Virus record (IMG/VR): IMGVR_UViG_3300023174_000184
Location: 1 to 59,965 of that record
Direction: 5' to 3' (one strand)
DNA length: 59,965 bases
From: a virus
Taxonomy: Duplodnaviria > Caudoviricetes
The notes beneath the pieces were generated by a model. That model did no database searches. It worked only from the letters and a program-made list of their open reading frames with translations, and had not been told where the DNA came from. Of this stretch, positions 5,286 through 49,163 are shown piece after piece. Each line of letters opens with the position of its first letter. Position 1 is the first letter of the stretch. Made by a program: the position numbers and the translations under genes.

Positions 5286-5304
5286 AATCTAAGTATACCA
5301 TTTG

Positions 5305-5377
5305 CTGAGGTGGCAGGTATCGATCCTGCGACATCCGAATTAACAGTTCGGCACTCTACCATCTGAGTTACACCCCA
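5305..5377 (-). tRNA. tRNA-Asn (GTT), CCA not encoded
   Basis: Manual cloverleaf: acceptor TGGGGTG/CACCTCA, D-arm ACTC/GAGT, anticodon stem CCGAA/TTCGG with loop CTGTTAA, T-stem GCAGG/CCTGC, discriminator G. Confidence 0.92.
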
Positions 5378-6534: not shown

Positions 6535-8178
6535 CTATTTACCATTCCATTTTGATAATTCATCTTGTAAAAGATCAAGTCCCATTGGTCCCAATTTAAG
6601 AGCATACATATGAAACTTTTTAAGGTTAAACTTATTTCCAAGACGTTGTTTAGCATCTTCTCTTGCTTGTAACCAAATTCTTTCACCAAGTTTATATGTG
6701 ATAGCCTGTCCTGCCCAGGAAATATATCTCTTAATTTCATTATGGGCATAGGTTTCATTTAGTAGTGCATATTCCTGCATAAATCTTGCTGCAGACCATT
6801 CATTCCAAGGATGTCCGTCTGGATCATTATACTGTAAGTGCAATCCAATATCTACAACTAATCTTGCTGCTCTCATTGCTTGACACATTAAGTATCCCAT
6901 TTTATATCCTGGGTCTTCAAAGTATCCCAGTTCATCCATAAGTTTTTCAGAGTATAAAGCCCAACCTTCACCGTACCCTGAATTCCATGCAGCCTCACGT
7001 TGATATCGTGTAAGAGTTTCTTTATTTAATTTAGAATATCCAATTTGCATATGGTGCCCAGGAACTGATTCATGAAACCAAGTAGAATAATTTTCCCATG
7101 TAGTAAATTTAGTTCTACCTAAAGTTGGATAGTAAGTTCTGCCTGGGATAGAAAAATCATCTGATGGATCTTTATAATATGGAGATTCATCAATTGTGTC
7201 TTCATCCATAACAACTTCACATTCTTTCATACCTGCTGGAATTATAAATACTGTTCTATTAAGTTCTTTAATAGCCATAGCAATTACGCCTTCAAGAAAA
7301 TCTTTAAAATTATCTACACCCTCAATAATATAATCTGGATGATTGTTTAGATGGTCACGAACTGCTATTAAACTATCAAACTCCCCCCATTGCTTAGATA
7401 GTTCCCACATTTGATTATTAATATTTTTAAGTTCTGATAATCCCCACTCATATACTTCTTTTGGATTAATTTCTAAACCAGTATACTCTTTTACATTTTT
7501 TAAATATCTTTCTTCTCCAACAGCCCAATTGCTTGTAGTTATTGAGGCATATTTTAATTCAAGCCATGATGCTAATTGCTCACATGCCATCTCTGCTTCT
7601 TTTGCTGCTTTTGCAAGACGTTTATCGTTTGGTGCTACATTTTTAGCAATGTCAGAGAACATTCCATATGAATAATTATTTAAAATGTCTACAATATACC
7701 CAACCCTTGCCCTTGCATTTACATGCCCAAGGTTAGCAACATCAACAAGGGATGTAGCCCATTGAATAAAAGCAGTTGGAATCTTTTCCATACGCTTAAT
7801 AATATTTAATATGTCTGCTCTGGTTTTTGTTGGCATAACCTCAAAAACTTCATAAATAGACTGTGGCTCAGAATAAATAGAGCCAAAGTCTGTATACATC
7901 CAGTAATCTTCTGAACTATTAATATAATTATTTATATCATTTAGCACAACCTTTTTAGCCAATTCATCGTGGCTATCTACTGATTTTGCGTTAGATATTT
8001 TCTTTTTGTAAGATTTAACTATTTTTAAAAATGGATCTATTTTATCAAATGCATAATCATTCCAGTGTCCATTTTGATCTGACTCTCCAGCATGGGTTGA
8101 GGCAACAGCATCATATTCCAAAGACTTTTGGAAATATTCATCACATAGTTTAAAAACTAGTGAGCGTGACTTAGCCAT
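6535..8178 (-). CDS. DUF885-family protein (zincin-like metallopeptidase)
   Basis: FHESVPGHHMQ and GYGEGWALYSE motifs, AMRAARLVVDIGLH, RYISWAGQAITYKLG, LGNKFNLKKFH; no signal peptide. Confidence 0.9.
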   Translation of the reverse strand: MAKSRSLVFKLCDEYFQKSLEYDAVASTHAGESDQNGHWNDYAFDKIDPFLKIVKSYKKKISNAKSVDSHDELAKKVVLNDINNYINSSEDYWMYTDFGSIYSEPQSIYEVFEVMPTKTRADILNIIKRMEKIPTAFIQWATSLVDVANLGHVNARARVGYIVDILNNYSYGMFSDIAKNVAPNDKRLAKAAKEAEMACEQLASWLELKYASITTSNWAVGEERYLKNVKEYTGLEINPKEVYEWGLSELKNINNQMWELSKQWGEFDSLIAVRDHLNNHPDYIIEGVDNFKDFLEGVIAMAIKELNRTVFIIPAGMKECEVVMDEDTIDESPYYKDPSDDFSIPGRTYYPTLGRTKFTTWENYSTWFHESVPGHHMQIGYSKLNKETLTRYQREAAWNSGYGEGWALYSEKLMDELGYFEDPGYKMGYLMCQAMRAARLVVDIGLHLQYNDPDGHPWNEWSAARFMQEYALLNETYAHNEIKRYISWAGQAITYKLGERIWLQAREDAKQRLGNKFNLKKFHMYALKLGPMGLDLLQDELSKWNGK

Positions 8179-17993: not shown

Positions 17994-18174
17994 CAATAAA
18001 ATCTTTTTTCTTTTTCTTTTGTGGTATCAATGAAACTTTTGAAAGATGTTTATCAGAACACATCCAAGACACATCACCGCTTGTAGACCATAATCTTGCA
18101 GAAAGAACTTCTTTATGGCATTGCTTGCATAAAAACTTTCCAGGAAATACTGTAAAATCTTTACTGGACATCAA
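17986..18174 (-). CDS. Small Zn-ribbon protein
   Basis: CKQC...WMCSDKH. Confidence 0.6.
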   Translation of the reverse strand: MMSSKDFTVFPGKFLCKQCHKEVLSARLWSTSGDVSWMCSDKHLSKVSLIPQKKKKKDFIDE

Positions 18175-19177
18175 ACAACTTCTTCTTTAATGATTCTTGA
18201 AGATCTAAATCCTCACGAACTCTATTAATAAAACCATCACGACCTTGAACTTTAGTGCCATCTTCTAGTTGATACCAAGCACCTGTTCTATTTACTAGAC
18301 CAATGGATTCTGAGGTATCAACAAGATCACCAAGGCTATCAATACCAACAGCATCTCCCCTGAAATAAAAGTCATACTCACCAGACTGAAAACCAGGAGA
18401 AGTCTTAGAAAATTGTAACTCCCACCTAATCTTTCTACCAATCTTTTCTTCAATGAGTTTATCTCCAACATGAATTTTGCCCTTAATTGCTTGATTATCT
18501 GATTCTGACGAAAATAGTTTAATAACTGTAGAAGAATAAAACTTAGTAGCCTGACCACCAGTAGGCTGCTGGCTAGTATACATAGCACTAATATTATTAC
18601 GAGACTGACTAATAAGTACAAGCATAGTAGGCTTAACTTTATTATTAGCATAATTAAGCATTTTCCATGCATTACTAAAGTCTCTAGACTCCGCACCAAT
18701 TTGTTTTGTATTTTCAAGTTGTTTAAGTTCATCTGAATCCTTTTCAAAATATATTGCTGGAAGAAGTGAAGTAATGCTATCAATAACAATCATATCAACA
18801 CCAGCCTGCATAAGATTTGTTCCAATATCAACCATCTCATTAATAGTGCGACACTGAGAAACAATAAGTTTAGAAGTGTCTACACCAAGACCCTCTGCCC
18901 ACTTTTTATCATATGACATCTCAGCATCAATCCATGCACAAATCTTGCCTTCTTTTTGTGCTAAACCAATCATCTGTAAACATAAAGAAGATTTGGCTGA
19001 TGATTTTGATCCCCAAATAAGAACTTGACGACCATACGGAAGTCCACCATTTAATGCACGATTGAGTCCATAACTTGGTGTGGCTGCATACTCTGTTGCT
19101 GGAACATCGTCTCCAGACATAATAGTTTTACGTAGTTTTGGATTAAGTTGTGCCAGTACTTCTTCAATAGTTACCAT
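18161..19177 (-). CDS. recA: RecA/UvsX-like recombinase
   Basis: LNGGLPYGR, WGSKSSAKS (degenerate Walker A), WIDAE, IVIDSI, LISQSR, PTGGQATKFYSS, GAWY. Confidence 0.93.
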   Translation of the reverse strand: MVTIEEVLAQLNPKLRKTIMSGDDVPATEYAATPSYGLNRALNGGLPYGRQVLIWGSKSSAKSSLCLQMIGLAQKEGKICAWIDAEMSYDKKWAEGLGVDTSKLIVSQCRTINEMVDIGTNLMQAGVDMIVIDSITSLLPAIYFEKDSDELKQLENTKQIGAESRDFSNAWKMLNYANNKVKPTMLVLISQSRNNISAMYTSQQPTGGQATKFYSSTVIKLFSSESDNQAIKGKIHVGDKLIEEKIGRKIRWELQFSKTSPGFQSGEYDFYFRGDAVGIDSLGDLVDTSESIGLVNRTGAWYQLEDGTKVQGRDGFINRVREDLDLQESLKKKLFDVQ

Positions 19178-34076: not shown

Positions 34077-34712
34077 TTAAACCTCTTCCAGCGTTACCGA
34101 AATATTCCAAAGGTCAAAATTACTTCCACCACGTTTAACTACTCCATAGTTAAAGTCTGCAATGTAAACTTCCATAATTTGGTTGTATTGTTGAAGATGT
34201 CCAAATGCTGCTGGATCAGTTCCAAAATTATTATACTTATCATATGATAAAAACATCCAAAAAGATCCTTTATGCTTTTCATACCAATCCAATAACTGAA
34301 CTCCACCTGCACCACCGTCAGTTGTAAACTCTCCAGTTTGATTTTTATTTGGTGAGACTCCAGATTCATCAAAATTTGAAACGGTATAATATGATCTAGA
34401 TGGAAGCATATTCCAAGATACAGACATAGATAACTTATCTGCAATATGATATGACCTCATACGACCATTAATTGTTCTTTGGCGCTGCTCAATTCTTTGT
34501 GGATTAAATTGCATATCGCTACGATTATGGTCTGATAAAATCATAAATTGATTAAATAAAGATTCATCTGTTTCTGCTCCAGTATTTGCCCCTACCTCAT
34601 ACCCAGTAGGCACGTATAAGCCATCTACAAGCGTTCCAGGGTTTTCTGACCATAATACGCCTTGAGGTCTCTGATATCTTTTTCTACCCGTTAAATAGGC
34701 TGCTGTAGCCAT
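34077..34712 (-). CDS. Minor (distal) tail protein
   Basis: Directly follows tape measure; RTINGRMRSYHIADK...WNISVTLEEV. Confidence 0.65.
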   Translation of the reverse strand: MATAAYLTGRKRYQRPQGVLWSENPGTLVDGLYVPTGYEVGANTGAETDESLFNQFMILSDHNRSDMQFNPQRIEQRQRTINGRMRSYHIADKLSMSVSWNMLPSRSYYTVSNFDESGVSPNKNQTGEFTTDGGAGGVQLLDWYEKHKGSFWMFLSYDKYNNFGTDPAAFGHLQQYNQIMEVYIADFNYGVVKRGGSNFDLWNISVTLEEV

Positions 34713-37700
34713 TATGCCCTCTGTCCTTTAATTCTTTGGGAATCAATATATTGGATCTGAGTCATTACTGCCTTTGCAATATCATCAGGGTTTGAATTAG
34801 ATCCGCCAACTGTTATTCCTACATTATAATTATACACTGAAGAACTGTTATTGTTTACAGAACTTGAACTTGACATATTTGTTGGTGAAACAATGGTTGA
34901 TTGTACAGTTTGATATGTAGGAGAACTTAGGTTTGATGGACTCATCATAGATGGATACTGAGATGCATTCATCTGTGCAAGCATTGGACCAAATGCTTTT
35001 GCTCCAAATTTATTCATTACAAACTCACCAGGGGTTAACATTGTTGGAACGCTATCCCCTGCGCCTGTACCTCTAACAAATCCACCAGTTGACATTCCAG
35101 ATGCTTTTAAAATTCCTGCTAACGTAGTTGTATTTACTGTGCCAGATGCCGTTGTAGTTAGTGCTGGTGTTGCACTTGCTTTTGCAATACCTGTAAGAGT
35201 AGTTGTATTTACTGTACCAGTTGGAGTTGTTGTAGGTTTAGTTGTTGTAGTTGTGGGTGCGGTTACTGTTGTAACTGTATTAATTGTATTTGTAGTTAAA
35301 GTTATAGTTTTACTGCTTAAACTATTCCAAGCAGCAACTAGTTTAGAAACTAACCCTTCGCTATATTCCATGCTTTTGCCAAAGGCATCACTGCTAACTT
35401 TAGCCATATCAATTGCACTTTGTGCTTGAAGCCATCTATCTCTTTGTGCATCAATTGCATCAAGTTCTTTTGTTAATTCTTCTTGAAGTTTGTCAAGTGC
35501 TTTTTGTTTTGTATCAAGATTGCTTTGTGCTGTTTTTAATGCACCTTGTTCAATACCATAAATTTGATCTTGAAGATCACGAATTTCTCTTTCAGCAATA
35601 ACTTTTTGTGCATCAAGTGGTGCAATTTTTGTTTCTTGAATTGCAGCAATTTGGTCTTCAATAACTTTTCTTTGTTGTTCAAGAGCATAAGTTTGTTCAC
35701 CAATTTGATATTGACGTTCTTCAATTTGTGCTCTTGTTTGTCCCGCTGCATTTCTAAGATTTGCAATTTCTAAATCTCTTGCTGCTTGTAATGTTCCTTG
35801 TGATTTATTAAGTTGATTTGCAGCCTCTATTGCTCTCATATCTTGGGCTGCTGCTGCTGCAGCGGAAATATCTCCAGAAGTTAATGCATCTGCTAATGTT
35901 AATTGTTGTTTTTGCTGGGCTGCAATTTCTGAATTAATACTTGCAATTTCTGTAAGAGCCTTTGCCTGTGTATCATATCTATCATTAATTGCACCTGCTG
36001 CATGATCCATCAAACTTAAATCATGAGAAAGTTTATTGGATTCATCTGATAGTACTGCAATTGGCTTATCAAATTGAGCCTTAATTTGTTCTTGAAGTGA
36101 ATCAATTTGTGCTTGATACTCTTCAATTTTTCTAGTAATATTAATTTCAATATTACGTTGTTTTGTATCAATAGTTCCTTGAATTCCATTAATGCTTGCC
36201 TGTGCTTCTTCAACAGCCTTTTTAGCCTTATCAACTTCTACTTGAGCATCCTTCATTGGTTGCTTAAACTTAAGTTGAATTGCTGCCTCTAATGTATTAA
36301 AGTATTCTTGAGCATTACCCATAGCCTTATCAAATAATCCTTGCATTCCTTCAGGGGTTTTCATTGCAATATCAATTTCAATTTGCTTGCGTGTTGGAAT
36401 TGAATTAATGTAATCAACTAGATCTTGTGAAACTATTTTTCCATCTTTTAGATTGTTTAACATTTCTCTTGCAAAATCAGGATTACTTAAAACCGCTTGC
36501 ACCTGATCTGCATTAAATCCAAGTGCCTTCATATCATCAACAAGACCAGGAAGTTTCTTTAACATTTCAAGTTCTTGTACAGATGTTTGCATTGTTTGCT
36601 TAAATGCTAAATTAAGATTATCTACAGCATCCTTTGCAGTCTTTGCTGCATTTGCCATATCCTTTAATTTATTTGCTGGCTCAACACTTGAATTAATTGC
36701 AATTGCAAGTTCTGCATCTGCCACCATATTAAGTGCTGTTGCACTATCTACTCCTGCAGCCTTTAGTTTAATGAATGCTGCTTGTTGTGCTTTTACCTGT
36801 GTTATTGTATCTATTTGTGCTGTATTAAAATCACCAAGGGTTTGCTCATTAAATGCTTCTGCTAAATTTTTACCTGCTTCAGTTAAAATAACTTGACCAT
36901 TTTTAACTGTCATATAGGTCTTACGAGTTGCTTCATCCATTGATTCCATGAATGAAATAAATCCTCTGTTATTACCAGTTAAATCTTTACCTGACATCAA
37001 CTGATTAATAACTCCACTAAATTTTTCAATTCCTTTACCAGCAGTTATTCTGTTTAATTCATTTATTCCGCCTTGAGCATTGATAGCAGCATCTCTAACC
37101 ATCTTTAAACGATTAAGAATATTGTCTAATGTTGTGTCTCTATTACCTGCATTACTTGTATCTACAGGACCCTTTGGTGGTGTGCTTGGTGTTTTTCCAG
37201 GGGCAAATTGTTCTCTAGTTAATAAAGCAGAAAGAGCATCCTTGTTGCCATATTGTTTAATAAATGCTGCTGCTCCCTTTCCTCTAAGTCCACGTTTTTC
37301 TGCTTCTGCTTTTGCCATAGATGCAGCATTTTCATCTGTAATTGTTTTATATACAGATATGTAAGTTTGAGTTACAGTCTTTTGAATATCTGCTGGAAGA
37401 TTCTTATATCTTTCCCAGTCATCAATAAGTCCCTGCAAACTTGGCATTTCTGGATCTTTTTGCAAATCTATTAAAATCTTTTTATCAATTGTTTTTAATT
37501 TTTCAACTTTATTAAGCAATGGTACAAGTTTATCTATTTTGGCTAATCCATCACCCTTTAAAAATAGTGCAAGATTTATTTCTTTACCATCCATTTGTTG
37601 CAGTAATGTAAGAGCATTTAATCTATCATCAAACTTGCCTTCTTGTCCCTTTGCACCAATTTCAGTTAATAATTTAAGACCAATTTCTTTACCACCCTTG

Positions 37701-40700
37701 CCATTTATATTTGTAGCAAGATTAATAAGTTCTGCCATCTTGCCTGGGTCTTGAGTTGCAAAAGTTGTTGTAAGAAGAGTTTGAAGTTTTGCCTCCCCCT
37801 CCTTGCCAAACATATTAATAAGTTTTGTTGCAGTATTAGGAGCAAGATCTCCAGCACCAACCATAGTTTTAATTGCTATTTCAAGGTCTAGGCTTTTTGT
37901 TTTTTTTGCTGTATCTAAAAATACTGATGCAAGAGGGTCATTTTTATATTTATTTTTTATCTGTTGATTAAGAGATGCGAAATATGCTGCTTGATCTGGT
38001 CTATCAAATGTTCCTCTTTCTCTTCCTCTAATCCCTCCAAAAGCCTTAAGTTGATCATCAATTGCTTTTTTTCTTTGTGCAGCAATTTTAGAATCATCAG
38101 ACGCTTGCTTTGTTTTTAAATCTTTAATTTGTTGTTCTATTTCAACTTGTTTCTTTTTATCAGTTGTAGCAGCAAGTTGTGTTTGAAGTCCATGGATCTG
38201 GTCATCATATAGTTTTGCTTGTGCATCTCTTTGTGCTTGAATAAGTTCTAATGATTGAGTTCCAGATGCAGCAAGCGATGCAGCAAGTTCTTTTGATTGT
38301 TTTGTGGATGTATCAAATGGTGTATTTTGATAAGCCTTTTGAATATCTGCAAAAGTATTTGTTTGTTCTTTAATTATTTTAACTCTTACAAGCAGTGGAT
38401 TTGTTGCAAGGTCTTGTCCATCTGGACCAAGAACTTCTCTAAGTTGTCCCTTAATGTTTGCAGCAATTGTCATATCTGACATATTTATGCCAATTGATCT
38501 TGCTACTGAATTTGCATCTTCTGCAGTCATTAATCCATCTGATACATATGCGGAAAGTTCAAGTGCAACTTGTTTTACTGCATCACCACCGCCCTTTGCA
38601 ACATTTGTTTTAAATGTATTATAAATTCCCTTACCTACATCAGATGATAAAAAGTTAGTTCCAAACTGTTGACCAGCACGATCATATCCTGTTGTATATG
38701 TATTAGCAGTACCGCCTTCACGACGCTTTGCCATAATTTCAGATGCACCTACTTTTCCAGTAAGTTGTCCAACCTGTTTCATTTTTTCAGTTGTTGCAGA
38801 AATTTGATCAATGTAATTTGATTGTGCTTCAGCCATTGCTCTTGCTTTATCATCAAGATGCTTCCACATTAATGCAAGACCTGCAATTGCTGCAGCAGCA
38901 GCAATATATGGATTAGCCTCAATTGCTAATAATAATTTTCCAAACCCACCCTTAAGTGCTGGCATTAATTGTGAAACAACTTGAATGCCAATAGCAAACG
39001 GAACAAGTTTTCTTGCAACATCTCCAATTTGACCACCTAAAAATGATCCAAGAATTGTAAGTCCAGCAAAGGCTCCAGATGCACCGTTTATCTTTTCACT
39101 CATGGTCTTTGTTGTTTTAGTTGCTTCAGCAGTAGCCTTTGTGCTTTCTTCAATTGCCTGTGCTTGCTTTATTGTATTTTGACTTATTCTAGTTTGCTCT
39201 GCAGCATTTGAAAATGGAATATTTTTAACTCCACCAGTTACACCTAATGGATTACCATTTTCATCTATTCCAGTTGCTGCTCCTGGAACAATAAATGCTC
39301 TTTGTGGAATTCTTATAAGTCTAGAATCTTTTGTACTTCCAGTTGAACTTTTAACATTTGCTGGTTTTGGAACTGTATTGTCTAAAGTTGTTTTTGTTAT
39401 TTTACCAGTTGTTGGATCAACAACTGTCTCTCCAAGACCAACAGCAACTGTTTTATCTCCACGACGAGTTGACTGTGTATCCTTAATTGGATTTCTTTGA
39501 CCAGAGGAACCTCTTCCTAGTTCTACCTTTGTGCCATCTTTTGTAGTAATTGTGATTCCAGAATTTACTACTTTGCCCTTAGACTCACTAAGTCTTTCTC
39601 TAATTTCATAATCTTTAATTAAACCTTGAGCCTTAGCCTGATCAAGTACAGCCTTGGTTGTTGTTGGTGTATCTCCAAGACCTTTACCAATTGTATACTC
39701 TCCAACCTTATTATAAAGGTTTTTCATTTTTTGATATGTTGGTGTTTTTTGAATTTCTGCAGGTAATTCATTAAATGCTTTTTCAATTATGTCATCATTG
39801 ACTGTAGCAACCTTCATTGCTGAAACTTTTTGCAAAATTGCATCATCTACAATTTGTGCTTGTGATGCTGGAATATTAGAAGAAATCCATTTTCTTGCAC
39901 CACCCTTCATCCATTTTTGTTGCCATTCTTCTAGTGGTAATCCTCGTCCAGCCATACGACGATTATCTTCTCCAGCAAAAGAATAAGCCAAGTTATGTCT
40001 TGTGCTAATTTCTTCTGGTAAACCATTTGCTCTTAAAATATCTCTATAAACTGTAAGTTTTTGTTTGTCTAATTCGCTTATACCAACCTGGCTTAAAAGT
40101 TTATCAATACCAAGATACTTAGACTTTCCAACATGTGAATATTGTTCTCCAGCATTTGCTGTTCCGATTGAATATCTTTTTACTGATCCATCAATGAGTG
40201 CTTGAATAAATGGTTTATTTTGTGGGTTTTGTGCAACATCTGCTGGAATAACTGCTTCTCCAGGTGTAAGCATTGCTGGTACTGTATCTGTTCCACTCGC
40301 ATACCCTGGAACTTTTTTAGTTCCTGTAGCAAACTTCTTTGGTATTTTTCCACCCATCATTCCTGGGTTTGCTTTAGCAAATGCTGCAGCAGCAAGAGTT
40401 GCTTCAATATATGCAGTACGTAATGCTGCAACTGCTGATGTTTCTAGTTCAAATTGTTGTGTAAGTTTTGTATGTGCTTGGTTAAGAGATGCTGCTACTG
40501 TTTCTGCTTCAAGTTGTTGTTGTGTTAAATAACTAGTTGTTGCTCCAAGATTTTTTGAATCTCCAGTCATCTTTAAGAATCCAACACGAAGGGCTAAAAA
40601 TAATTTTACAATATTTGCAACTCCATTTGCAAGTAAGCCAAATGTCATTAGCAATACTGGTCCAACTACTCCAACAAGTGTAGTTGCTACAACAAGAAAT

Positions 40701-42325
40701 TTCTTTGTTCCATCACTAAGATTATTAAATTTATCAAAAAGATTTCCAACCACTTTAACTATTGGTGTAACTGCTTGTAAAAATGTTTTACCAATTGGTG
40801 CAATAGCAAGTTTTAATTTTTCAACAGATGCTCTAAAGTTTGTACCTACAGCATCTTCTACTGTTTTCATTTCTCGTTCAGATAAAATTGCAAGTTCTTC
40901 TACTGATTTTCCAGTTAAGTCAAGAACACGATTTGCCTGACTTCCATCTTTAGTAATATTTTGAAATAATGTTGAAAGACGAGCAAACTGGAATTTGCCA
41001 AACATTTGTTCAATTGCTCTGGCACGATTAAGTGGATCTAGTTGATTTAATGCAGTTGCAAAATCAATAACTGTTTTCTTAAGGTTGCCCTTATCTCCTT
41101 CGACAATTGCTTTAACATTAATACCAAATCCTGCAAGCATATCTGATGCTTTTTTAGTTGGATTGATTAATGCTGCAAGACCAGATTTGATAGCATTTGC
41201 ACCTTCTGATGCATTAATTCCACCTTCCTTCATTGCTGTTAAGAAGAATGCTAAATCTTGTACATTGCCACCAAGTTGTTGGATTACTGGTCCTGCTTTA
41301 GGAACGGCAACAGTCAAATCTTCAATAGATGTTACAGTTTGGTTTTCAACTGCGTTAAGAAAGTCAATGTTTTTCTTTAAATCTTGTGCAGAAATACCAA
41401 ATGCATTTGTTAAAGAAATAGTTGTTTCTAATGCTTGCTGTTGATCTACACCACCAAGAACTGCAAGCCTTGTTGCTTGTGCAACTTGAGCAGTAAGGTC
41501 TGCACCCATTTTACCTGTTGCTGCTGCATCAGCAGCCATTTTCATTGTATCTGCAACTGCTACACCGTATCTAGTAAATTCTTTAGCAAGGTTTTGAATA
41601 TCTCCAAGAGCCTTATTAGTTTGTTCAGTTGTTGTAAACATATCTCCATAAACACGTTTAAATCTAACAGCCTGTGCTTCAAGATCCATAAATGTTTTTG
41701 CTGCCATTGAGCCAAAGTATGCTAATGGAACAGAGAAACCAACCATCAACTGACGACCAGCCCATTGAGTATTCTTACCAAAGTTTAAAAGATTCGTTGA
41801 ACCTTGTCTAATTAATTGATTAAATATTGCTTGTTTTTGTGATGCTAATGCTGTTTGTGTTGCTGCATCTTTCATATTTAATGAAAGTGGTGTAACAGCC
41901 ATTGCCTTGGTTGCACCATTGGCATCACGACCCATTTTAATATACTGGGTTTGCATCTTCTTGACACGTTCTTCTGCTACTTTGCCAATTGTGTCAAATT
42001 CACTCTTAAATAATTTTCCAAATGTCTTTGTTGCTCCTCCAGCATATCTGAAGTATTGATTCATTGAAAGTTTATTATTTTCAAGAGCATGGGTAAATGA
42101 CTCAGTGGATGTTCTTACAAGACCCATCTGAGCCTGGAATTTACCAGTTGCGTTGATTGCATTTAAAAGGTTAGTTTGTAAACCTTTTTGGGCAGCAGCA
42201 GATGCTGCACTACCTTTTGCTACTTGAGAATGAAAGTTGGCGAGTTGGCGTTGTAAATTCTTTAGTTCCGCTAATGCAGGGGCAGCATTTATATTTATGC
42301 CAATATTAGCATTAACATCGCTCAC
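34712..42325 (-). CDS. Tape measure protein
   Basis: About 2537 aa, Ala/Lys/Gln-rich helical; TP901-like core (DFLNAVENQT...MKEGGINASEGANAIKSGL), TM-like segments, DTVPAMLTPGEAVI motif; start GTG 42325 or TTG 42328. Confidence 0.93.
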   Translation of the reverse strand: MSDVNANIGININAAPALAELKNLQRQLANFHSQVAKGSAASAAAQKGLQTNLLNAINATGKFQAQMGLVRTSTESFTHALENNKLSMNQYFRYAGGATKTFGKLFKSEFDTIGKVAEERVKKMQTQYIKMGRDANGATKAMAVTPLSLNMKDAATQTALASQKQAIFNQLIRQGSTNLLNFGKNTQWAGRQLMVGFSVPLAYFGSMAAKTFMDLEAQAVRFKRVYGDMFTTTEQTNKALGDIQNLAKEFTRYGVAVADTMKMAADAAATGKMGADLTAQVAQATRLAVLGGVDQQQALETTISLTNAFGISAQDLKKNIDFLNAVENQTVTSIEDLTVAVPKAGPVIQQLGGNVQDLAFFLTAMKEGGINASEGANAIKSGLAALINPTKKASDMLAGFGINVKAIVEGDKGNLKKTVIDFATALNQLDPLNRARAIEQMFGKFQFARLSTLFQNITKDGSQANRVLDLTGKSVEELAILSEREMKTVEDAVGTNFRASVEKLKLAIAPIGKTFLQAVTPIVKVVGNLFDKFNNLSDGTKKFLVVATTLVGVVGPVLLMTFGLLANGVANIVKLFLALRVGFLKMTGDSKNLGATTSYLTQQQLEAETVAASLNQAHTKLTQQFELETSAVAALRTAYIEATLAAAAFAKANPGMMGGKIPKKFATGTKKVPGYASGTDTVPAMLTPGEAVIPADVAQNPQNKPFIQALIDGSVKRYSIGTANAGEQYSHVGKSKYLGIDKLLSQVGISELDKQKLTVYRDILRANGLPEEISTRHNLAYSFAGEDNRRMAGRGLPLEEWQQKWMKGGARKWISSNIPASQAQIVDDAILQKVSAMKVATVNDDIIEKAFNELPAEIQKTPTYQKMKNLYNKVGEYTIGKGLGDTPTTTKAVLDQAKAQGLIKDYEIRERLSESKGKVVNSGITITTKDGTKVELGRGSSGQRNPIKDTQSTRRGDKTVAVGLGETVVDPTTGKITKTTLDNTVPKPANVKSSTGSTKDSRLIRIPQRAFIVPGAATGIDENGNPLGVTGGVKNIPFSNAAEQTRISQNTIKQAQAIEESTKATAEATKTTKTMSEKINGASGAFAGLTILGSFLGGQIGDVARKLVPFAIGIQVVSQLMPALKGGFGKLLLAIEANPYIAAAAAIAGLALMWKHLDDKARAMAEAQSNYIDQISATTEKMKQVGQLTGKVGASEIMAKRREGGTANTYTTGYDRAGQQFGTNFLSSDVGKGIYNTFKTNVAKGGGDAVKQVALELSAYVSDGLMTAEDANSVARSIGINMSDMTIAANIKGQLREVLGPDGQDLATNPLLVRVKIIKEQTNTFADIQKAYQNTPFDTSTKQSKELAASLAASGTQSLELIQAQRDAQAKLYDDQIHGLQTQLAATTDKKKQVEIEQQIKDLKTKQASDDSKIAAQRKKAIDDQLKAFGGIRGRERGTFDRPDQAAYFASLNQQIKNKYKNDPLASVFLDTAKKTKSLDLEIAIKTMVGAGDLAPNTATKLINMFGKEGEAKLQTLLTTTFATQDPGKMAELINLATNINGKGGKEIGLKLLTEIGAKGQEGKFDDRLNALTLLQQMDGKEINLALFLKGDGLAKIDKLVPLLNKVEKLKTIDKKILIDLQKDPEMPSLQGLIDDWERYKNLPADIQKTVTQTYISVYKTITDENAASMAKAEAEKRGLRGKGAAAFIKQYGNKDALSALLTREQFAPGKTPSTPPKGPVDTSNAGNRDTTLDNILNRLKMVRDAAINAQGGINELNRITAGKGIEKFSGVINQLMSGKDLTGNNRGFISFMESMDEATRKTYMTVKNGQVILTEAGKNLAEAFNEQTLGDFNTAQIDTITQVKAQQAAFIKLKAAGVDSATALNMVADAELAIAINSSVEPANKLKDMANAAKTAKDAVDNLNLAFKQTMQTSVQELEMLKKLPGLVDDMKALGFNADQVQAVLSNPDFAREMLNNLKDGKIVSQDLVDYINSIPTRKQIEIDIAMKTPEGMQGLFDKAMGNAQEYFNTLEAAIQLKFKQPMKDAQVEVDKAKKAVEEAQASINGIQGTIDTKQRNIEINITRKIEEYQAQIDSLQEQIKAQFDKPIAVLSDESNKLSHDLSLMDHAAGAINDRYDTQAKALTEIASINSEIAAQQKQQLTLADALTSGDISAAAAAAQDMRAIEAANQLNKSQGTLQAARDLEIANLRNAAGQTRAQIEERQYQIGEQTYALEQQRKVIEDQIAAIQETKIAPLDAQKVIAEREIRDLQDQIYGIEQGALKTAQSNLDTKQKALDKLQEELTKELDAIDAQRDRWLQAQSAIDMAKVSSDAFGKSMEYSEGLVSKLVAAWNSLSSKTITLTTNTINTVTTVTAPTTTTTKPTTTPTGTVNTTTLTGIAKASATPALTTTASGTVNTTTLAGILKASGMSTGGFVRGTGAGDSVPTMLTPGEFVMNKFGAKAFGPMLAQMNASQYPSMMSPSNLSSPTYQTVQSTIVSPTNMSSSSSVNNNSSSVYNYNVGITVGGSNSNPDDIAKAVMTQIQYIDSQRIKGQRA

Positions 42326-42345
42326 CAACTACACCTTCTTCCTAT

Positions 42346-42678
42346 TTAATTATTTGCAAGTACTGTATTCAACAAAGCATTTGCATCAGAGAGTTTTACT
42401 CCAGATGCTGCTTCAATAATATTGTAAACAGTAGGAAGATCTAAGATATCTTCAAGTTTTGCTACGTCTGAGGCAAGTTCTGGCTTATACTGCTCCATTG
42501 CAATCTGTACACATTCGATAAGAAGTGCCATTGACTTCTCATTATCTTCTGCTACAGTTGCTACCTGCTCAAACTTCTTCATAAATGGACGAAGCAAAGA
42601 AATCTTCAAGGGACGAACCTTGATCTTTGAACCATCCATAAGTGTCAGTTCTGACCCCTCATGCACTGTTGTTGCCAT
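42346..42678 (-). CDS. Tail assembly chaperone, short (G-like) form
   Basis: Between major tail protein and TMP; LTLMDG...PLKI...LR.FM..F...LDLPTVY; own TGCTATAAT promoter and AGGAGG RBS. Confidence 0.75.
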   Translation of the reverse strand: MATTVHEGSELTLMDGSKIKVRPLKISLLRPFMKKFEQVATVAEDNEKSMALLIECVQIAMEQYKPELASDVAKLEDILDLPTVYNIIEAASGVKLSDANALLNTVLANN

Positions 42679-42726
42679 TATATTTTCCTCCTATTAGGCT
42701 TAGTTAATTATAGCATGAAAACGCTA

Positions 42727-43413
42727 TTAAGTTAAATTTTCATAATCAAGACCCATGCCAATTCCAAAACCTGCTTTTCTAGCATTTTGTCCTTGTAATG
42801 ATAAAACATCATTGGAATCGCTTGTTGCGCCACCACTGAATACTCTTGCTTTCATTGATTCCCACTCATCTTGACCCTTGCCATTTTGTGCTTCTAAATC
42901 AATACCTTGAATTGCTGCTAAAAATTTTTTTTCTTCATATTCTAACTCTCTACGTGATCCAAGAGTTGCAATTAATTCTGGCATAGATAATGACATTTCT
43001 AATTCTTGATAATCTTTCCAAATACCAATTAAAAATACTTCTGCTTCTAATTTTGCTAAATCTAATTCAGACCATGATTGACCACCAGATGTGGCTTGTT
43101 CTTTTACTGGCTCTTCAGATTTTTTATTTATTTTAATTCCAGCAGCAATGTCAACAACTTCATAAATTGTTGGTAGGTCTATATTATCTTCAATATCTGA
43201 AAGTTGTTTAGATATCTTGGGGTAAAACTGCTTCATACAAACTTGCACACATTTTGCTAAGACTGAGATTGATTCATCATCGTCTTTTGCATTTTTTACA
43301 CCTTCAAATACTTCCATAAACTCTCTTAAGTATTTTATTTTAAGTGGAGTTATTTCTATTTCTTTACCGTCCAAAAGTGTAATATTTTTTGATTGATAAA
43401 TATAAGTTGCCAT
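42727..43413 (-). CDS. Tail assembly chaperone, long (GT-like) form
   Basis: N-terminal ~100 aa homologous to 42346..42678, then in-frame WSELDLAKLEAEVFLIGIWKDYQELE...FLAAIQGIDL extension; start reassigned to MATY. Confidence 0.75.
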   Translation of the reverse strand: MATYIYQSKNITLLDGKEIEITPLKIKYLREFMEVFEGVKNAKDDDESISVLAKCVQVCMKQFYPKISKQLSDIEDNIDLPTIYEVVDIAAGIKINKKSEEPVKEQATSGGQSWSELDLAKLEAEVFLIGIWKDYQELEMSLSMPELIATLGSRRELEYEEKKFLAAIQGIDLEAQNGKGQDEWESMKARVFSGGATSDSNDVLSLQGQNARKAGFGIGMGLDYENLT

Positions 43414-43432
43414 TATCTTTAATTGTAGCATA

Positions 43433-43468
43433 AAACAACAAAACCCACTACCTTTTGGGTAATGGGTC
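43433..43468 (-). terminator. Intrinsic terminator after major tail protein gene
   Basis: ACCCATTACC-CAAAA-GGTAGTGGGT then TTTGTTGTTTT. Confidence 0.8.
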
Positions 43469-43490
43469 AGTTGTATAATTTATTAAATTA

Positions 43491-44123
43491 TTATGCTGGT
43501 GTCCAAGTACGGTCAACGATCTTTCCATATGAACCAGAAGTATCTTCTGGAAGCAAACGGAATGATACGGCGAACTCTGATGGAGCATCACGCTTTGCTG
43601 ATACTGTTACGTTGTCAATTGACAATGCACGGTATGCTGTGTAAACACGCTCTACATATGCAGAGTCTGCACAGTCGCCTGTTCCTGGTCCAACTGCAAC
43701 GATTCCTCGTTCAACTGGACATTCTCCGATGTCACCTGCAGAAAGGTCAAGAACCTGTCCTGCTGAAGTGCTCTTTGTGCCTGACAACTTGCTTGAAGAA
43801 TATGCAAGAGACAAAAGAAGATTCTCAAGTGTTGCTTCAGCAAATGTTGTTGCAAGGTTAACCTTCATACCCTGCTTATAAAGTTTAGCAACGTCAAGAA
43901 TCTGGTCAACCTTAACTTCACCGAAGTCTGGTTGGAACTGTAGTTCAAGACCGTTCATGGTGTAACCTGCGTTAGTGTAGTCCATTGAATCAGCAAGAGT
44001 ATCCTTGAATGACTTATTAGCACCGAATGATTCTAATGAAGCGTTATCAAGAGTAGTATCTGCGATAAAAAGGGCTGCTGCACCAACGATAATGTTAGTT
44101 GAATTACCACGAGTATATGCCAT
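43491..44123 (-). CDS. Major tail protein
   Basis: NIIVGAAALF, GYTMNGLEL, VKVDQ, TTFAEATLENL, FAVSFRLLP; own promoter and terminator. Confidence 0.85.
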   Translation of the reverse strand: MAYTRGNSTNIIVGAAALFIADTTLDNASLESFGANKSFKDTLADSMDYTNAGYTMNGLELQFQPDFGEVKVDQILDVAKLYKQGMKVNLATTFAEATLENLLLSLAYSSSKLSGTKSTSAGQVLDLSAGDIGECPVERGIVAVGPGTGDCADSAYVERVYTAYRALSIDNVTVSAKRDAPSEFAVSFRLLPEDTSGSYGKIVDRTWTPA

Positions 44124-44201
44124 TTATTCACCTCTTTCTTAAAGAATTGATATTAAGTTTTTTTGGCGTTTGTTTCCTCAACCTTAATTATAACAGTCTT
44201 T

Positions 44202-45881: not shown

Positions 45882-46852
45882 TAGATTGCCCTTGGCTTAT
45901 AAACTGAAACAATATATTTTTGTAGAATCTTATCCACAAAGCCATTGCCAGTTCCAGCAAATAATGAAGTATCAAATTTAATATTAAATTGATCTGTTTG
46001 ATATCCAACAACATATTTTTTTGCATAGTCAAGGTTTCCACATTTAATATCTTCAACTAAACGACGAACTGCATCTTGAACATCATGCGGAATAACTTTG
46101 TATCCTGCCTCATAAATAAAAATATAATCTGTGCCTTCAGGAAACATAACTGGTTGATCATAAAGCACGGTATGAGAACTGTCAATAGGAATAGATGCAC
46201 GATATGAATCTGAAAATGCTCTTGGTAACTGTCTTGGACGTTTTTCAGCACGATTAAAATTATTTATTCTTGGAACTGGTTCTTTATAAATTGCAGAACG
46301 GTCCTGTGTAATACCGTATGTAAAACCACCAATTTCTGGAGTATCAGCATCAACATCATATACCAATTCACCATTTTCATAAACCTTAATAATTTTATAC
46401 CCTATATCCCAAAGAGGCATATAGTCTGTTCCTTCTCCAACAACTTCCATAACTGTTTTTTCAAAAATAAAACCTTTTGGTCCAACCATTGAATCAACAA
46501 GACCTCTGGCAAGTTGTTCATATTCTTTGTATTCTGCAATCTCTGTTGCTGTTGTTCCTAAAGTATTTGGATCAACATATGGCTTCATAATATTAAGAAC
46601 ATCTTCAACTACAACATCTCCATATATTGTTCCATCTGGAGTATCATAAATTAATACTGCATAGTTATGATCATATTTAACAAAATCTCCAGTAAGTTCA
46701 TATACAACTTTTGCATCTGCATTAGATGTTAAGACAACTTGAGCCTCAATTGTTTTTGGAGCATTTTCAATTGTAAAAATATATTGCTCATTGGCATCTG
46801 GTACGGAGTATGTAACTGATAAAGGATATGGTGGGAGTCTTAAAATTTGCAT
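45881..46852 (-). CDS. Head-tail adaptor protein
   Basis: YEAGYKVIPHDVQDAV...GTGNGFVDKILQKY pattern; position. Confidence 0.65.
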   Translation of the reverse strand: MQILRLPPYPLSVTYSVPDANEQYIFTIENAPKTIEAQVVLTSNADAKVVYELTGDFVKYDHNYAVLIYDTPDGTIYGDVVVEDVLNIMKPYVDPNTLGTTATEIAEYKEYEQLARGLVDSMVGPKGFIFEKTVMEVVGEGTDYMPLWDIGYKIIKVYENGELVYDVDADTPEIGGFTYGITQDRSAIYKEPVPRINNFNRAEKRPRQLPRAFSDSYRASIPIDSSHTVLYDQPVMFPEGTDYIFIYEAGYKVIPHDVQDAVRRLVEDIKCGNLDYAKKYVVGYQTDQFNIKFDTSLFAGTGNGFVDKILQKYIVSVYKPRAI

Positions 46853-47292
46853 TATTTGGTACCGTAGTGTCTTGCTACCTCATCAGGAGTTGCTATACGA
46901 ACTGCCTTATGAGTTATCCACTTTTCGGATGCCTCCTTAGATACTATATTGTACCCCAATTCTAATACCCCAACTCCAGTCCAAGATAAATTTCTTGTAG
47001 AGTGTACAGCAACATCATTTTTATTCTTTTTTATTTTTTTTGTTTCAATAACTTGAACTGGTTCTTGTTTTTTAGATATTGCATTAATTACATTTTCAGG
47101 ATTTTTAATTTCTTCTTCAGACTTTGCTTGTTCTTGAACTTTTTTAGCAAGACCACTTTCATTTGAATATTTTTCTAATATAGCAATAATCTGTGCTTTT
47201 TTTACATTACTTTCTAAACTTATTCCATTGTCTTCACAATAAGAACGAAGTTCTAAAACTGTCTTTTTGTTTAAAACATCATAAAGTGACAT
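46852..47292 (-). CDS. Hypothetical protein with N-terminal HeH/Rho-N/SAP-like domain
   Basis: LNKKTVLELRSYCEDNGI...KKAQIIAIL; C-terminal GYNIVSK...HKAVRIATPDEV. Confidence 0.6.
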   Translation of the reverse strand: MSLYDVLNKKTVLELRSYCEDNGISLESNVKKAQIIAILEKYSNESGLAKKVQEQAKSEEEIKNPENVINAISKKQEPVQVIETKKIKKNKNDVAVHSTRNLSWTGVGVLELGYNIVSKEASEKWITHKAVRIATPDEVARHYGTK

Positions 47293-47336
47293 ATTAATTC
47301 CTCCTAGTTCATTATACCAGAGTAAAGGAATTACAC

Positions 47337-47672
47337 TTACTTAAGGTATGTCTTAATTTCGTCTTTGTTTGCTAAACGAACAGCCTTATGATTTGCAATT
47401 TTTTCATAACGATTTTTGCTAACAAAACTATATCCTTTTGGAATTGTAGATCCGCCTGGAAGTGTCAAACTACGTAGTGTATAAATTGCAATATCTTCTG
47501 CTGAATTATCTTCAAACTTAGATACTGACTCTTCAACCTTTGGTGCTTCTACAACTGGTGCTTCTACAACAGGTGCTTCAACCTTTGGCTCTTCTAATAC
47601 TGGTGCTTCTACAATTGCCTCAACTACTGGAGTCTCAACAACTGGTGCATTTTCATTTTTATTTTCAAACAT
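47337..47672 (-). CDS. Hypothetical protein with (EAPVV)n repeats, paralogue of 46852..47292
   Basis: EAPVV/EAPKV repeats; C-terminal GYSFVSK...HKAVRLANKDEI. Confidence 0.6.
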   Translation of the reverse strand: MFENKNENAPVVETPVVEAIVEAPVLEEPKVEAPVVEAPVVEAPKVEESVSKFEDNSAEDIAIYTLRSLTLPGGSTIPKGYSFVSKNRYEKIANHKAVRLANKDEIKTYLK

Positions 47673-47700
47673 AATTCCTCCTTGTTAAATTATATCATAA

Positions 47701-47934
47701 TTACTTTTTACGACTAGATCTAAACCTACCTTGTGTTGCAAGCCTAATTCCACTTGGATCTCCAGATGGATTAACTGCGTTTGCTCCAGACGTTTCCCCT
47801 AAAATTGCCACACCATTTTGTCCAAGATACTGCTGTGTCATAGGTCCTGATGGACCCATTACTATTGCACCTACTACAACAAATGCTCCCTCTCCATTTA
47901 ATGGATTATTTGCATCTGTACCTGGATATGACAT
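47701..47934 (-). CDS. 77-aa protein homologous to the major capsid protein N-terminal arm
   Basis: YPG..LNGEGAF..GETSGANAVNPSGDPSGIRLATQGR versus MCP YPG..LNGQGSF..GVTSGPNAVHPTGTPGGILLPEQAR; AGGAG RBS. Confidence 0.7.
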   Translation of the reverse strand: MSYPGTDANNPLNGEGAFVVVGAIVMGPSGPMTQQYLGQNGVAILGETSGANAVNPSGDPSGIRLATQGRFRSSRKK

Positions 47935-48007: not shown

Positions 48008-49141
48008 TTATTCATCTGCTGCAGCGTCTGCGAAAGCAACTGCATCAAGTTCTTCCCACTGAATACCAAAACGAACGAATACTGTGTATTCGATTGTGTC
48101 CTTCTTTGGACGGTATTCACGGTTTACAGTGATATCACGCTGGAATCCCCAGATACGGTTCTGTGGGAATGTCAAATCGACATATCCTGCAGGGTAGTAA
48201 GGAACTTCCTGAACATCAATTCCTAGAACACGAGTTGTACGTGCTCCACCGAATGTCTGTCCTGTACCATCAAGGTATGCCTGACGGTTCTGCGCTGTAC
48301 CAGCAGGAACTGAAGAAAATGCTTCAGCAATTGCATCTGCAAGTGTTCCATTGTACTTTACAATACCCTGGAATGCATCTGTACCAGCATAAAACTTAAG
48401 ATTATTCTTAAGTGCACGGTACTTACGTGGCATTGCAAGGATAATATCCTGCATTACATTTGTGTTCCATGCGTTATCTGTTACTGTAACTATTGATTCG
48501 TGTGCTCCTGAACCATCAGCCTTAGCCTTTTTGATAAAACCATTCATGATTGAAAGGAAGTCACCTGTTGAACCATCGCCATTAATAGCAAGGTCTTCAA
48601 TATCGTTTGCAAATGCGTTAGTCATCAAGCGAACTAGATGATCTTCCAACGCACCTCCTTCAATATTATCTTCAAGTGCTTCTGTTGCTACTTCCCAGTC
48701 AAGACGAATCTTCTTGGTAGTAAGTTCAACCTTAGTAAAAGTTGCACCGACGTTTGTGTAGTTGTATGATGCTTGAGCAGCAGCACGAATTACACGCTCA
48801 CCGACGTTAACCTTATCAAGTTCCATTGTGTTTGCACGCATTGTAACTCTACGTCCATCTTGAGCGAGGACAGTTGCATCCCACACGTAATCAATGAAGC
48901 GACGAGCCTGTTCAGGCAATAGAATACCACCAGGGGTTCCTGTTGGATGTACTGCGTTTGGTCCAGATGTAACTCCTGTGATTGGTGTTGGGATATTTCC
49001 CATTGCACCACCACGAGTAGGAACTGCTCCGCTACCTGAAGTATCTCCTGATGCGAAAGAACCCTGACCGTTTAGTTCAGCGCCTGAGCCACCAGAACCT
49101 GGATAGTTCTTTACGATTTCTGTATTTGTTGTTTCCGACAT
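48008..49141 (-). CDS. Major capsid protein (HK97 fold)
   Basis: GGILLPEQARRFIDY, ELTTKKIRLDWEVATEALEDNIEG, FANDIEDLAINGD; AGGAGGTG RBS before MSETT. Confidence 0.92.
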   Translation of the reverse strand: MSETTNTEIVKNYPGSGGSGAELNGQGSFASGDTSGSGAVPTRGGAMGNIPTPITGVTSGPNAVHPTGTPGGILLPEQARRFIDYVWDATVLAQDGRRVTMRANTMELDKVNVGERVIRAAAQASYNYTNVGATFTKVELTTKKIRLDWEVATEALEDNIEGGALEDHLVRLMTNAFANDIEDLAINGDGSTGDFLSIMNGFIKKAKADGSGAHESIVTVTDNAWNTNVMQDIILAMPRKYRALKNNLKFYAGTDAFQGIVKYNGTLADAIAEAFSSVPAGTAQNRQAYLDGTGQTFGGARTTRVLGIDVQEVPYYPAGYVDLTFPQNRIWGFQRDITVNREYRPKKDTIEYTVFVRFGIQWEELDAVAFADAAADE

Positions 49142-49163
49142 ATTGTTCACCTCCTAGTGATTA

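Follow-up and report, generated by a model that had tools for sequence, protein, structure and literature searches.

A passage of PMC5009743 that summarises the work on the lambda gpG/gpGT frameshift (Levin 1993; Xu, Hendrix and Duda 2004, 2013, 2014) states that the G/G-T frameshift is conserved in long-tailed phages except T4. For lambda, the same passage gives a G:GT ratio of about 30:1, which is set by slippage efficiency (PMC5009743). The frameshift is treated as nearly universal in long-tailed phages; annotators apply it as a rule, and predictors of frameshifts are trained on it (PMC5009743, PMC10885494). Here, we analyzed two genes that encode tail assembly chaperones in record IMGVR_UViG_3300023174_000184, an uncultured viral contig with a G+C content of 34% and a completeness estimate of 56%; the window is the whole stretch of 59,965 bp. 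We consider it probable that this lineage swapped the programmed −1 frameshift for two separately initiated genes, one with G-T in a single frame and one with G alone, and that the ratio of the products is set at initiation.

Chaperone pairs without a frameshift have been described before. In some T4-like phages, a short gene is accompanied by a longer, fused one (Vladimirov, Gautam and Davidson 2022, Virology 566:9, as cited in a passage of PMC10885494). The window pair agrees with the wording of that passage, since it consists of a short gene and a longer gene with a homologous N-terminal part and involves no frameshift; this likeness is one to the published description, not to the T4-like sequences. 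T4-like phages have contractile tails and Gram-negative hosts, whereas the window clade has siphovirus-type tail genes (major tail, long tape measure) and is related to Streptomyces phages; the siphovirus-type label was taken from the tail genes, and no search was made for a sheath gene. Because close relatives of the window still use the frameshift, its clade acquired the arrangement independently of the T4-like phages. Microbacterium cluster EA phages are reported to express two ORFs (open reading frames) separately with no evident frameshift (PMC7302621). They differ in that G and T are separate ORFs, and the passage in question does not speak of G-T fused in frame next to a duplicated G. 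For T4-like phages, the principle has been published before, and the window clade is an independent case that is distinctive in having frameshifting close relatives. We found no description of the two-gene arrangement in Stanwilliamsviridae-like or freshwater phages in open-access full texts.

The window pair resembles lambda gpG/gpGT in its position and in its products, a short protein and a longer one that shares the N-terminal part and has an added C-terminal T domain. It is also directly homologous to Streptomyces phage proteins annotated as tail assembly chaperones, one record of which has a joined frameshift CDS (coding sequence). Unlike in lambda, the long product is encoded by one plain ORF. 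A second gene, diverged from the first and lying behind it, supplies the short product. The two genes have separate promoter-like boxes and differ in the type of translation start; the ratio would be set at initiation.

The chaperone gene pair and its relatives

The genes of the tail region are all located on the minus strand. The order along the mRNA is the major tail gene, a terminator, the 228-aa (amino acid) ORF, a 48-nt (nucleotide) spacer, the 110-aa ORF and the tape measure gene, which places the chaperone pair between the major tail and tape measure protein genes. The features are as follows.

43491 to 44123, minus strand: major tail protein gene, 210 aa, directly upstream of the chaperone pair
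43432 to 43468, minus strand: intrinsic terminator after the major tail gene, an 11-bp G+C-rich hairpin (43442 to 43468) followed by TTTTGTTGTTTT
43422 to 43430, minus strand: putative extended −10 box TGCTACAAT, 8 nt ahead of the long-gene ATG
42727 to 43413, minus strand: long chaperone gene, 228 aa, with a G-like part, a linker and a T-like part in one frame
42707 to 42715, minus strand: putative extended −10 box TGCTATAAT, in the 48-nt spacer, 28 nt ahead of the short-gene ATG
42687 to 42692, minus strand: Shine-Dalgarno (SD) sequence AGGAGG, 8 nt ahead of the short-gene ATG
42346 to 42678, minus strand: short chaperone gene, 110 aa, the G-only paralogue
34712 to 42325, minus strand: tape measure protein gene, about 2,537 aa, starting 20 nt past the short gene, behind GAAGGTG

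The original prediction had noted that the N-terminal part of the 228-aa protein resembles the 110-aa protein. The pairwise comparison bears this out far beyond chance: 39 of the first 97 residues are identical (40%), with 76% positives and one gap (BLASTP, E 5e-30). The long and short genes are paralogues, and they are the only two copies of G in the contig. The N-terminal parts of both proteins match phrog_10504 (E 1e-22 and 2e-20), and residues 131–190 of the long protein match a separate PHROG, phrog_10474 (E 4e-12). The family phrog_1932, which is labelled tail assembly chaperone, was matched weakly, by the short protein at E 0.028 and by 4 of 56 family members at E ≤ 0.01. A Pfam scan of both proteins gave nothing above threshold. 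The long gene consists of a G-like part (residues 1–97, 43123–43413), a Lys/Glu/Ser-rich linker and a T-like part (residues ~118–228, 42730–43062), and it ends with TAA TAG.

Among cultured phages, the window is nearest to the Stanwilliamsviridae of Streptomyces, with about 42% protein identity. The window had been discussed earlier in a Streptomyces phage context; that context does not hold, since the contig is no Streptomyces phage but an uncultured one with low G+C content. A tblastn search with the long protein returned 128 phage records, 127 of them from Streptomyces phages (Stanwilliamsviridae, ~42% identity), and the matches were always split into two pieces in different frames. The chaperone pair is homologous to the annotated tail assembly chaperones of these 127 records at about 42% identity.

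In Coruscant and Patelgo, the −1 frame reads ...S(T)WEELDLA.LEAE.F, and the T part lies there. The long protein of the window reads QSWSELDLAKLEAEVF / GGQSWSELDLAKLEAEVF in frame where these two phages use the −1 frame. Because T lies in the −1 frame of the relatives and in frame here, the long gene is the in-frame equivalent of G-T. The 0-frame tail of the Streptomyces phage G (KLNDPNLL...N*) is recognisable in the short protein (KLSDANALL...N*); the short protein thus keeps the canonical end, and the short gene is the equivalent of G. The T-like domain had been predicted to continue in frame, and it does so, residues ~118–228 matching the −1 frame T of the Streptomyces phages and of three environmental loci (L085, L243 and L244).

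A search of 1.84 billion representative proteins gave 401 matches at E ≤ 0.001. Among the matches listed (150 and the two window proteins), G and T occurred together in 12, G only in 54 and T only in 86, the last being the usual gene call for a −1 T ORF. These counts are rough, as some of the representative proteins are fragments or chimeras.

The arrangement was then compared across related loci. Loci L005 to L250 came from four IMG/VR scans, and 249 sources were classed. In 236 of the 249, G-T is read in one frame, uninterrupted by a stop, and a second G comes after it. Eight other sources have an in-frame fusion on a contig that ends too early for a second G to be seen, and five have the canonical −1 form (L085, L243, L244, Coruscant and Patelgo). 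Removal of repeated entries left 157 distinct loci among the 236 with the duplicated arrangement. In the first locus set, both ORFs were found in 78 of 80 loci, the other two being cut. Some of the fused proteins among the relatives share just 45–53% identity. The ratio of nonsynonymous to synonymous substitution rates (dN/dS), calculated for 300 pairs, was 0.12 for the G domain and 0.07 for the T domain of the long gene, and 0.14 for the short gene. All three are under purifying selection.

The five canonical loci share with the window the terminator, a TGCTATAAT-type box and an SD ahead of G, and their major tail, G, T and tape measure genes are homologous to its own. They are unlike it in having one G, T in the −1 frame and no second G, and in having a slippery heptamer (none of canonical type was seen in Coruscant). 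L085, L243 and L244 share one layout: terminator, TGCTATAAT, a leader (about 25 nt) containing an SD, a single G of 102–110 aa, T in −1, and the tape measure gene; a second G is absent. The SD is AGGAGG in two of the three. Their heptamers (C_CCA_AAA, C_CCA_AAC and A_AAC_CCA) are in frame and lie inside an overlap of 19–22 nt in which both frames are open. The box TGCTATAAT also stands ahead of the single G gene of Coruscant. Because the same box, leader and SD precede G in the frameshifting relatives, the cassette of the short gene is the ancestral G cassette. The T of L085 aligns closely with the T part of the window: the protein P0017, 89% identical to the former, shares 63% identity with the latter.

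In Patelgo, two products are annotated between the major tail and tape measure genes, a tail assembly chaperone of 116 aa and a longer one from a joined (frameshifted) CDS; the annotation of Coruscant gives two adjacent chaperone CDSs that are not joined. An in-frame C_CCA_AAT lies in the overlap window of Patelgo (L002, 1780–1855). No canonical heptamer was seen in the overlap of Coruscant (L001, 1780–1850; …GCTGGGAAGAACTAG).

The programmed frameshift of a lambda-type pair is not found in the long gene of the window, where G runs on into T in the same frame without an intervening stop. The G/T junction holds no in-frame X_XXY_YYZ heptamer, in accordance with what had been noted from the window, and none is conserved at the junction across the 157 loci. 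Elsewhere in the long gene, four in-frame heptamers occur at codons 9, 40, 162 and 226, and a codon alignment of the 157 long genes showed none of them conserved as a nucleotide motif. These observations support the conclusion that a frameshift is unnecessary for G-T to be made from the long gene. Overall, the original prediction of duplicated genes in place of a frameshift is well supported by the paralogy, the in-frame T, the lack of a conserved slip site and the conserved, unlike start signals described below.

Expression signals and the proposed mechanism

Signals were counted in the 157 distinct loci with the box pattern TGnTAnnnT. The box of the long gene ends 5–9 nt before the start in 148 of them and 12–15 nt before it in eight, and it was not seen in one truncated locus. 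An SD match of at least 4 nt is absent ahead of the long gene in 155 of 157 loci. The short-gene box lies 23–42 nt upstream in all 157, being exactly TGCTATAAT in 115, and an SD match of at least 5 nt is present in 141; in 11 of the 157 loci, the short-gene start was set a few codons off (non-ATG codon), which makes their distances and SD scores slightly wrong.

The long gene had been described as lacking an SD and as having a non-consensus box. The first part stands. The second can be refined: the box is more than a weaker, non-consensus promoter, having the form of an extended −10 element that keeps its distance from the ATG in nearly all loci. For the short gene, the consensus box and AGGAGG are present in the window as described, and the signals are conserved in the relatives. 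The position of the long gene, first and behind the major-tail terminator, was confirmed as well: the hairpin and the T run were both found in the window. The hairpin has 11 consensus pairs, each of which shows a two-sided compensatory change in at least one sequence (61 related sequences).

In the window, the −10 element is 8 nt from the ATG of the long gene and no SD is present, as in starts of the leaderless type, so the start of this gene would have the anatomy of a leaderless mRNA. The long ORF starts with MATYIY. Another in-frame ATG, at 43431, sits within the −10 box; it is not the conserved start, because 156 of 157 relatives begin at the ATG aligned with MAT. The rule predicted for gene callers is that the 228-aa ORF begins at the ATG 8 nt past the −10 box, not at the ATG inside it.

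From these signals, a mechanism can be proposed. The terminator would end most transcripts of the major tail gene. The first box would start a transcript whose 5′-terminal AUG is the start codon of G-T, and G-T would be translated only from transcripts of its own promoter, read-through RNA having an internal AUG without an SD. The second box would add transcripts for G and the tape measure protein. G would thus be transcribed from both promoters and by terminator read-through, and it would be translated from a strong SD, in a leader of 23–32 nt with AGGAGG. Two promoters, read-through and a strong SD for G mean that G would plausibly exceed G-T, as lambda requires; both the size and the direction of this ratio are predictions. 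By analogy with lambda, the G domain of the long protein would hold the tape measure protein and the T domain would recruit the major tail protein. The binding partners of G-T and G, like the transcription start points, are those that the model predicts.

Several points weigh against this reading. First, the pattern TGnTAnAAT is not over-represented in the window (31 matches versus 27.2 expected). Because it is not enriched, the promoter calls rest on positional conservation. Second, Actinobacteria translate leaderless mRNAs efficiently, so that low expression does not follow from such a start. Third, the eight loci with the more distant box carry a leader of 12–15 nt with GGGG/GGGA ahead of the long gene, and a strictly leaderless start is therefore not universal. 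The subgroup includes L185, L190, L192, L193, L195, L196 and L198, and its GGGG/GGGA is a weak SD-like element. It suggests that the strength of G-T initiation may have been retuned within the clade.

The predicted structures lend the reading weak support, and their limits count against it. The AlphaFold2 model of the long protein had a mean predicted local distance difference test score (pLDDT) of 75 and that of the short protein one of 66, and both modelled G domains consist of a beta-hairpin followed by four helices. In an alignment-based search of 48,161 chains, residues 1–94 of the long model matched best to YqbN, a B. subtilis prophage protein (3klu_A, Z 6.2, root-mean-square deviation (rmsd) 3.9, 85 aligned), and to the HK97 tail assembly chaperone (2ob9_B, Z 5.2, rmsd 5.7, 86 aligned). 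YqbN was also the top match of the short model (Z 5.6, rmsd 3.4, 85 aligned). These matches are suggestive of a G-domain fold akin to that of phage and prophage chaperone-like proteins. However, all Z values are under 8, the level for a secure fold. Foldseek against the PDB with the two-domain model gave no match at E ≤ 0.001, and a sequence profile search of the PDB with the family alignment gave chance-level matches (E ≥ 0.4). A modelled complex of the major tail protein and the T domain (residues 113–228) had scores of 0.13 and 0.00, which is no evidence either way. The last point against the reading is that the G tree, given in the next section, sets the long-gene G domain apart from all other G.

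RNA data were available as assembled, low-depth contigs from freshwater metatranscriptomes (five runs matching, four compared), which give no levels, starts or ends. The RNA contigs cover the major tail gene (43462–44159) and the short gene at 42472–42675 (X4, 204 nt) and 42499–42552 (X2). None lies on the long gene in the four low-depth runs, and this was not used as evidence. Three RNA contigs stop at 43462–43478, close to the terminator; this is no more than a weak hint. The major tail gene is found at 95–99% identity in freshwater RNA contigs from three studies; in X1, there are 7 differences in a contig of 269 nt and 4 in one of 453 nt. Close relatives of the window phage are therefore present in freshwater RNA libraries.

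Origin of the duplication and alternative explanations

In the G tree, the long-gene G domains form one clade with a long stem (Shimodaira–Hasegawa-like approximate likelihood ratio test (SH-aLRT) 95), and the short genes fall within the canonical G proteins. The canonical environmental G proteins share 49–54% identity with the short protein versus 35–44% with the fused G domain. The G proteins of the Streptomyces phages are about equally far from both. Because the long-gene G stands apart, a simple recent tandem duplication is not demonstrated. A single clade of the two G copies was not rejected by the approximately unbiased (AU) test (p 0.40), for a set that left out the truncated locus L059.

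The trees of T and of the major tail protein contain polytomies at the relevant depth, and a single origin is neither shown nor excluded by them. The Streptomyces phages form a clear outgroup, with a support of 100, to the environmental clade, which is represented by 38 rows of the duplicated type and three of the frameshift type. A phylogeny had been suggested as a means to date the duplication. It yielded the well-supported clade of long-gene G domains, and no date came from the G, T or major tail trees. The data fit a scenario in which the promoter-plus-G cassette was duplicated inside the environmental clade and the fused copy then changed faster; an older origin or an imported G-T gene would be compatible with the same trees.

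The divergence of the two G copies also bears on another explanation of the gene pair. The paralogues may have been subfunctionalised, with the long protein as the complete chaperone and the short protein in a distinct task, such as coating certain segments of the tape measure protein, which is unusually long (2,538 aa), so that stoichiometry would not be the point. The G domains are just 40% identical, the separate clade of the long-gene G with its long stem would fit divergent constraints, and both genes are under purifying selection. However, the short protein is nearest to canonical G, as the above identities show, and it keeps the canonical expression cassette, so it looks like an unchanged G with no novelty. 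Moreover, the frameshifting relatives, whose tape measure genes are similarly placed, need only one G sequence. We therefore regard subfunctionalisation as unlikely.

A still smaller chance is given to persistent recoding. Here, the long gene would go on giving two products, for example because a −1 slip or a transcriptional slip on an A run leads into a nearby stop, as in dnaX, and the short gene would be an additional copy. Such runs do exist: the window has A6 at codons 97–98, at the G/T junction, with a −1 stop directly after it, and an in-frame A_AAA_AAA at codon 162. Across the relatives, the median distance to a −1 stop past residue 97 is 0 codons. But there is no conservation of these runs. 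AAA stands at codon 97 in 87 of the 157 loci and at codon 98 in 75, many different residues taking its place in the others, and AAA and AAG alternate at codon 162 (95/56) and codon 163 (83/73). Heptamers reach at least 20% of loci in just two columns, at residues ~40 and ~162, and not at the junction. A-rich Lys codons are also expected at 34% G+C. Recoding at this locus is accordingly a very improbable explanation.

The last alternative, a one-base assembly error that fused G and T or a decaying locus, could be raised for any incomplete metagenome-assembled contig such as the window, and is hardly credible here, because the fusion and the second G occur in 236 of 236 long-enough loci from many assemblies, 157 of them distinct, with abundant synonymous variation and low dN/dS.

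Neighbouring genes and the meaning of the arrangement

The major tail protein of the window shares 41–44% identity with the annotated proteins of Coruscant and Patelgo and 67% with the homologue in L085. The latter protein (596–1537) has 313 aa versus 210 aa in the window, owing to an insertion of about 100 aa after residue ~20. In some records of Streptomyces phages, major tail homologues are labelled 'protein with Ig domain'.

Homologues of the tape measure gene are annotated as tape measure protein in the Streptomyces phage relatives. The relatives align at its start (ATG/GTG-GCT/AGT-GAT-GTT-AAT-GCT), and the GTG at 42325 is probably the true start, one codon further in than the TTG at 42328 chosen by the ORF finder (2,538 aa). 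The gene takes up about 13% of the contig. Tail length follows a rule of about 0.15 nm per tape measure residue, by which a protein of about 2,537 aa would give a tail near 380 nm.

Other genes of the contig, all on the minus strand, encode a CHAP + PG_binding_1 endolysin-like protein (773–1570), a carbamoyltransferase (2196–3617), a DUF885 protein (6535–8178, E 5e-116) and a RecA homologue (18161–19177). The contig has a single tRNA-Asn at 5304–5377 (minus strand). Hints at the host are the Streptomyces phage relatives, the CHAP + PG_binding_1 endolysin, and the freshwater RNA libraries with a near-identical major tail sequence.

Two further likenesses between neighbouring ORFs were seen in the head module and near it. 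A 77-aa Gly/Pro-rich ORF (47701–47934, minus strand) lies just downstream of a 380-aa ORF (48008–49150, minus strand) that is called capsid-like from its position and size. The end of the former (SGANAVNPSGDPSGIRLATQ) resembles the N-terminal region of the latter (SGPNAVHPTGTPGGILLPEQ), and this may be a small duplicated segment. The adjoining ORFs at 46852–47292 (146 aa) and 47337–47672 (111 aa), both on the minus strand, have a common C-terminal motif (HKAVRIATPDEV, HKAVRLANKDEI), and a TGnTAtAAT box lies 16–18 nt upstream of each (47311–47319 and 47689–47697). They look like another paralogous pair, in the head module.

With regard to the chaperones, a second independent lineage with the same two products indicates that the selected property is the protein pair, and presumably its ratio, rather than slippage itself. 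An intact long ORF should therefore be annotated as it stands, with no frameshift imposed on it. The canonical and duplicated forms occur among close relatives and have sharply unlike start signals, which makes them a natural experiment on how chaperone stoichiometry is encoded.

A more specific history can be proposed for the swap of the frameshift for two genes. A large clade of uncultured freshwater phages may have escaped recoding, here of a kind that ranks among the most conserved in virology, by duplicating the promoter-plus-G cassette, fusing one copy in frame to T and stripping its leader, so that G-T would be made only by leaderless translation. We rate this history as somewhat likelier true than false. 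If it is true, the frameshift and the two-gene solution would be comparable and swappable on nearly the same genetic background, on which L085, L243 and L244 still use the frameshift. It would then be testable why the frameshift otherwise persists and how the G:G-T ratio is encoded.

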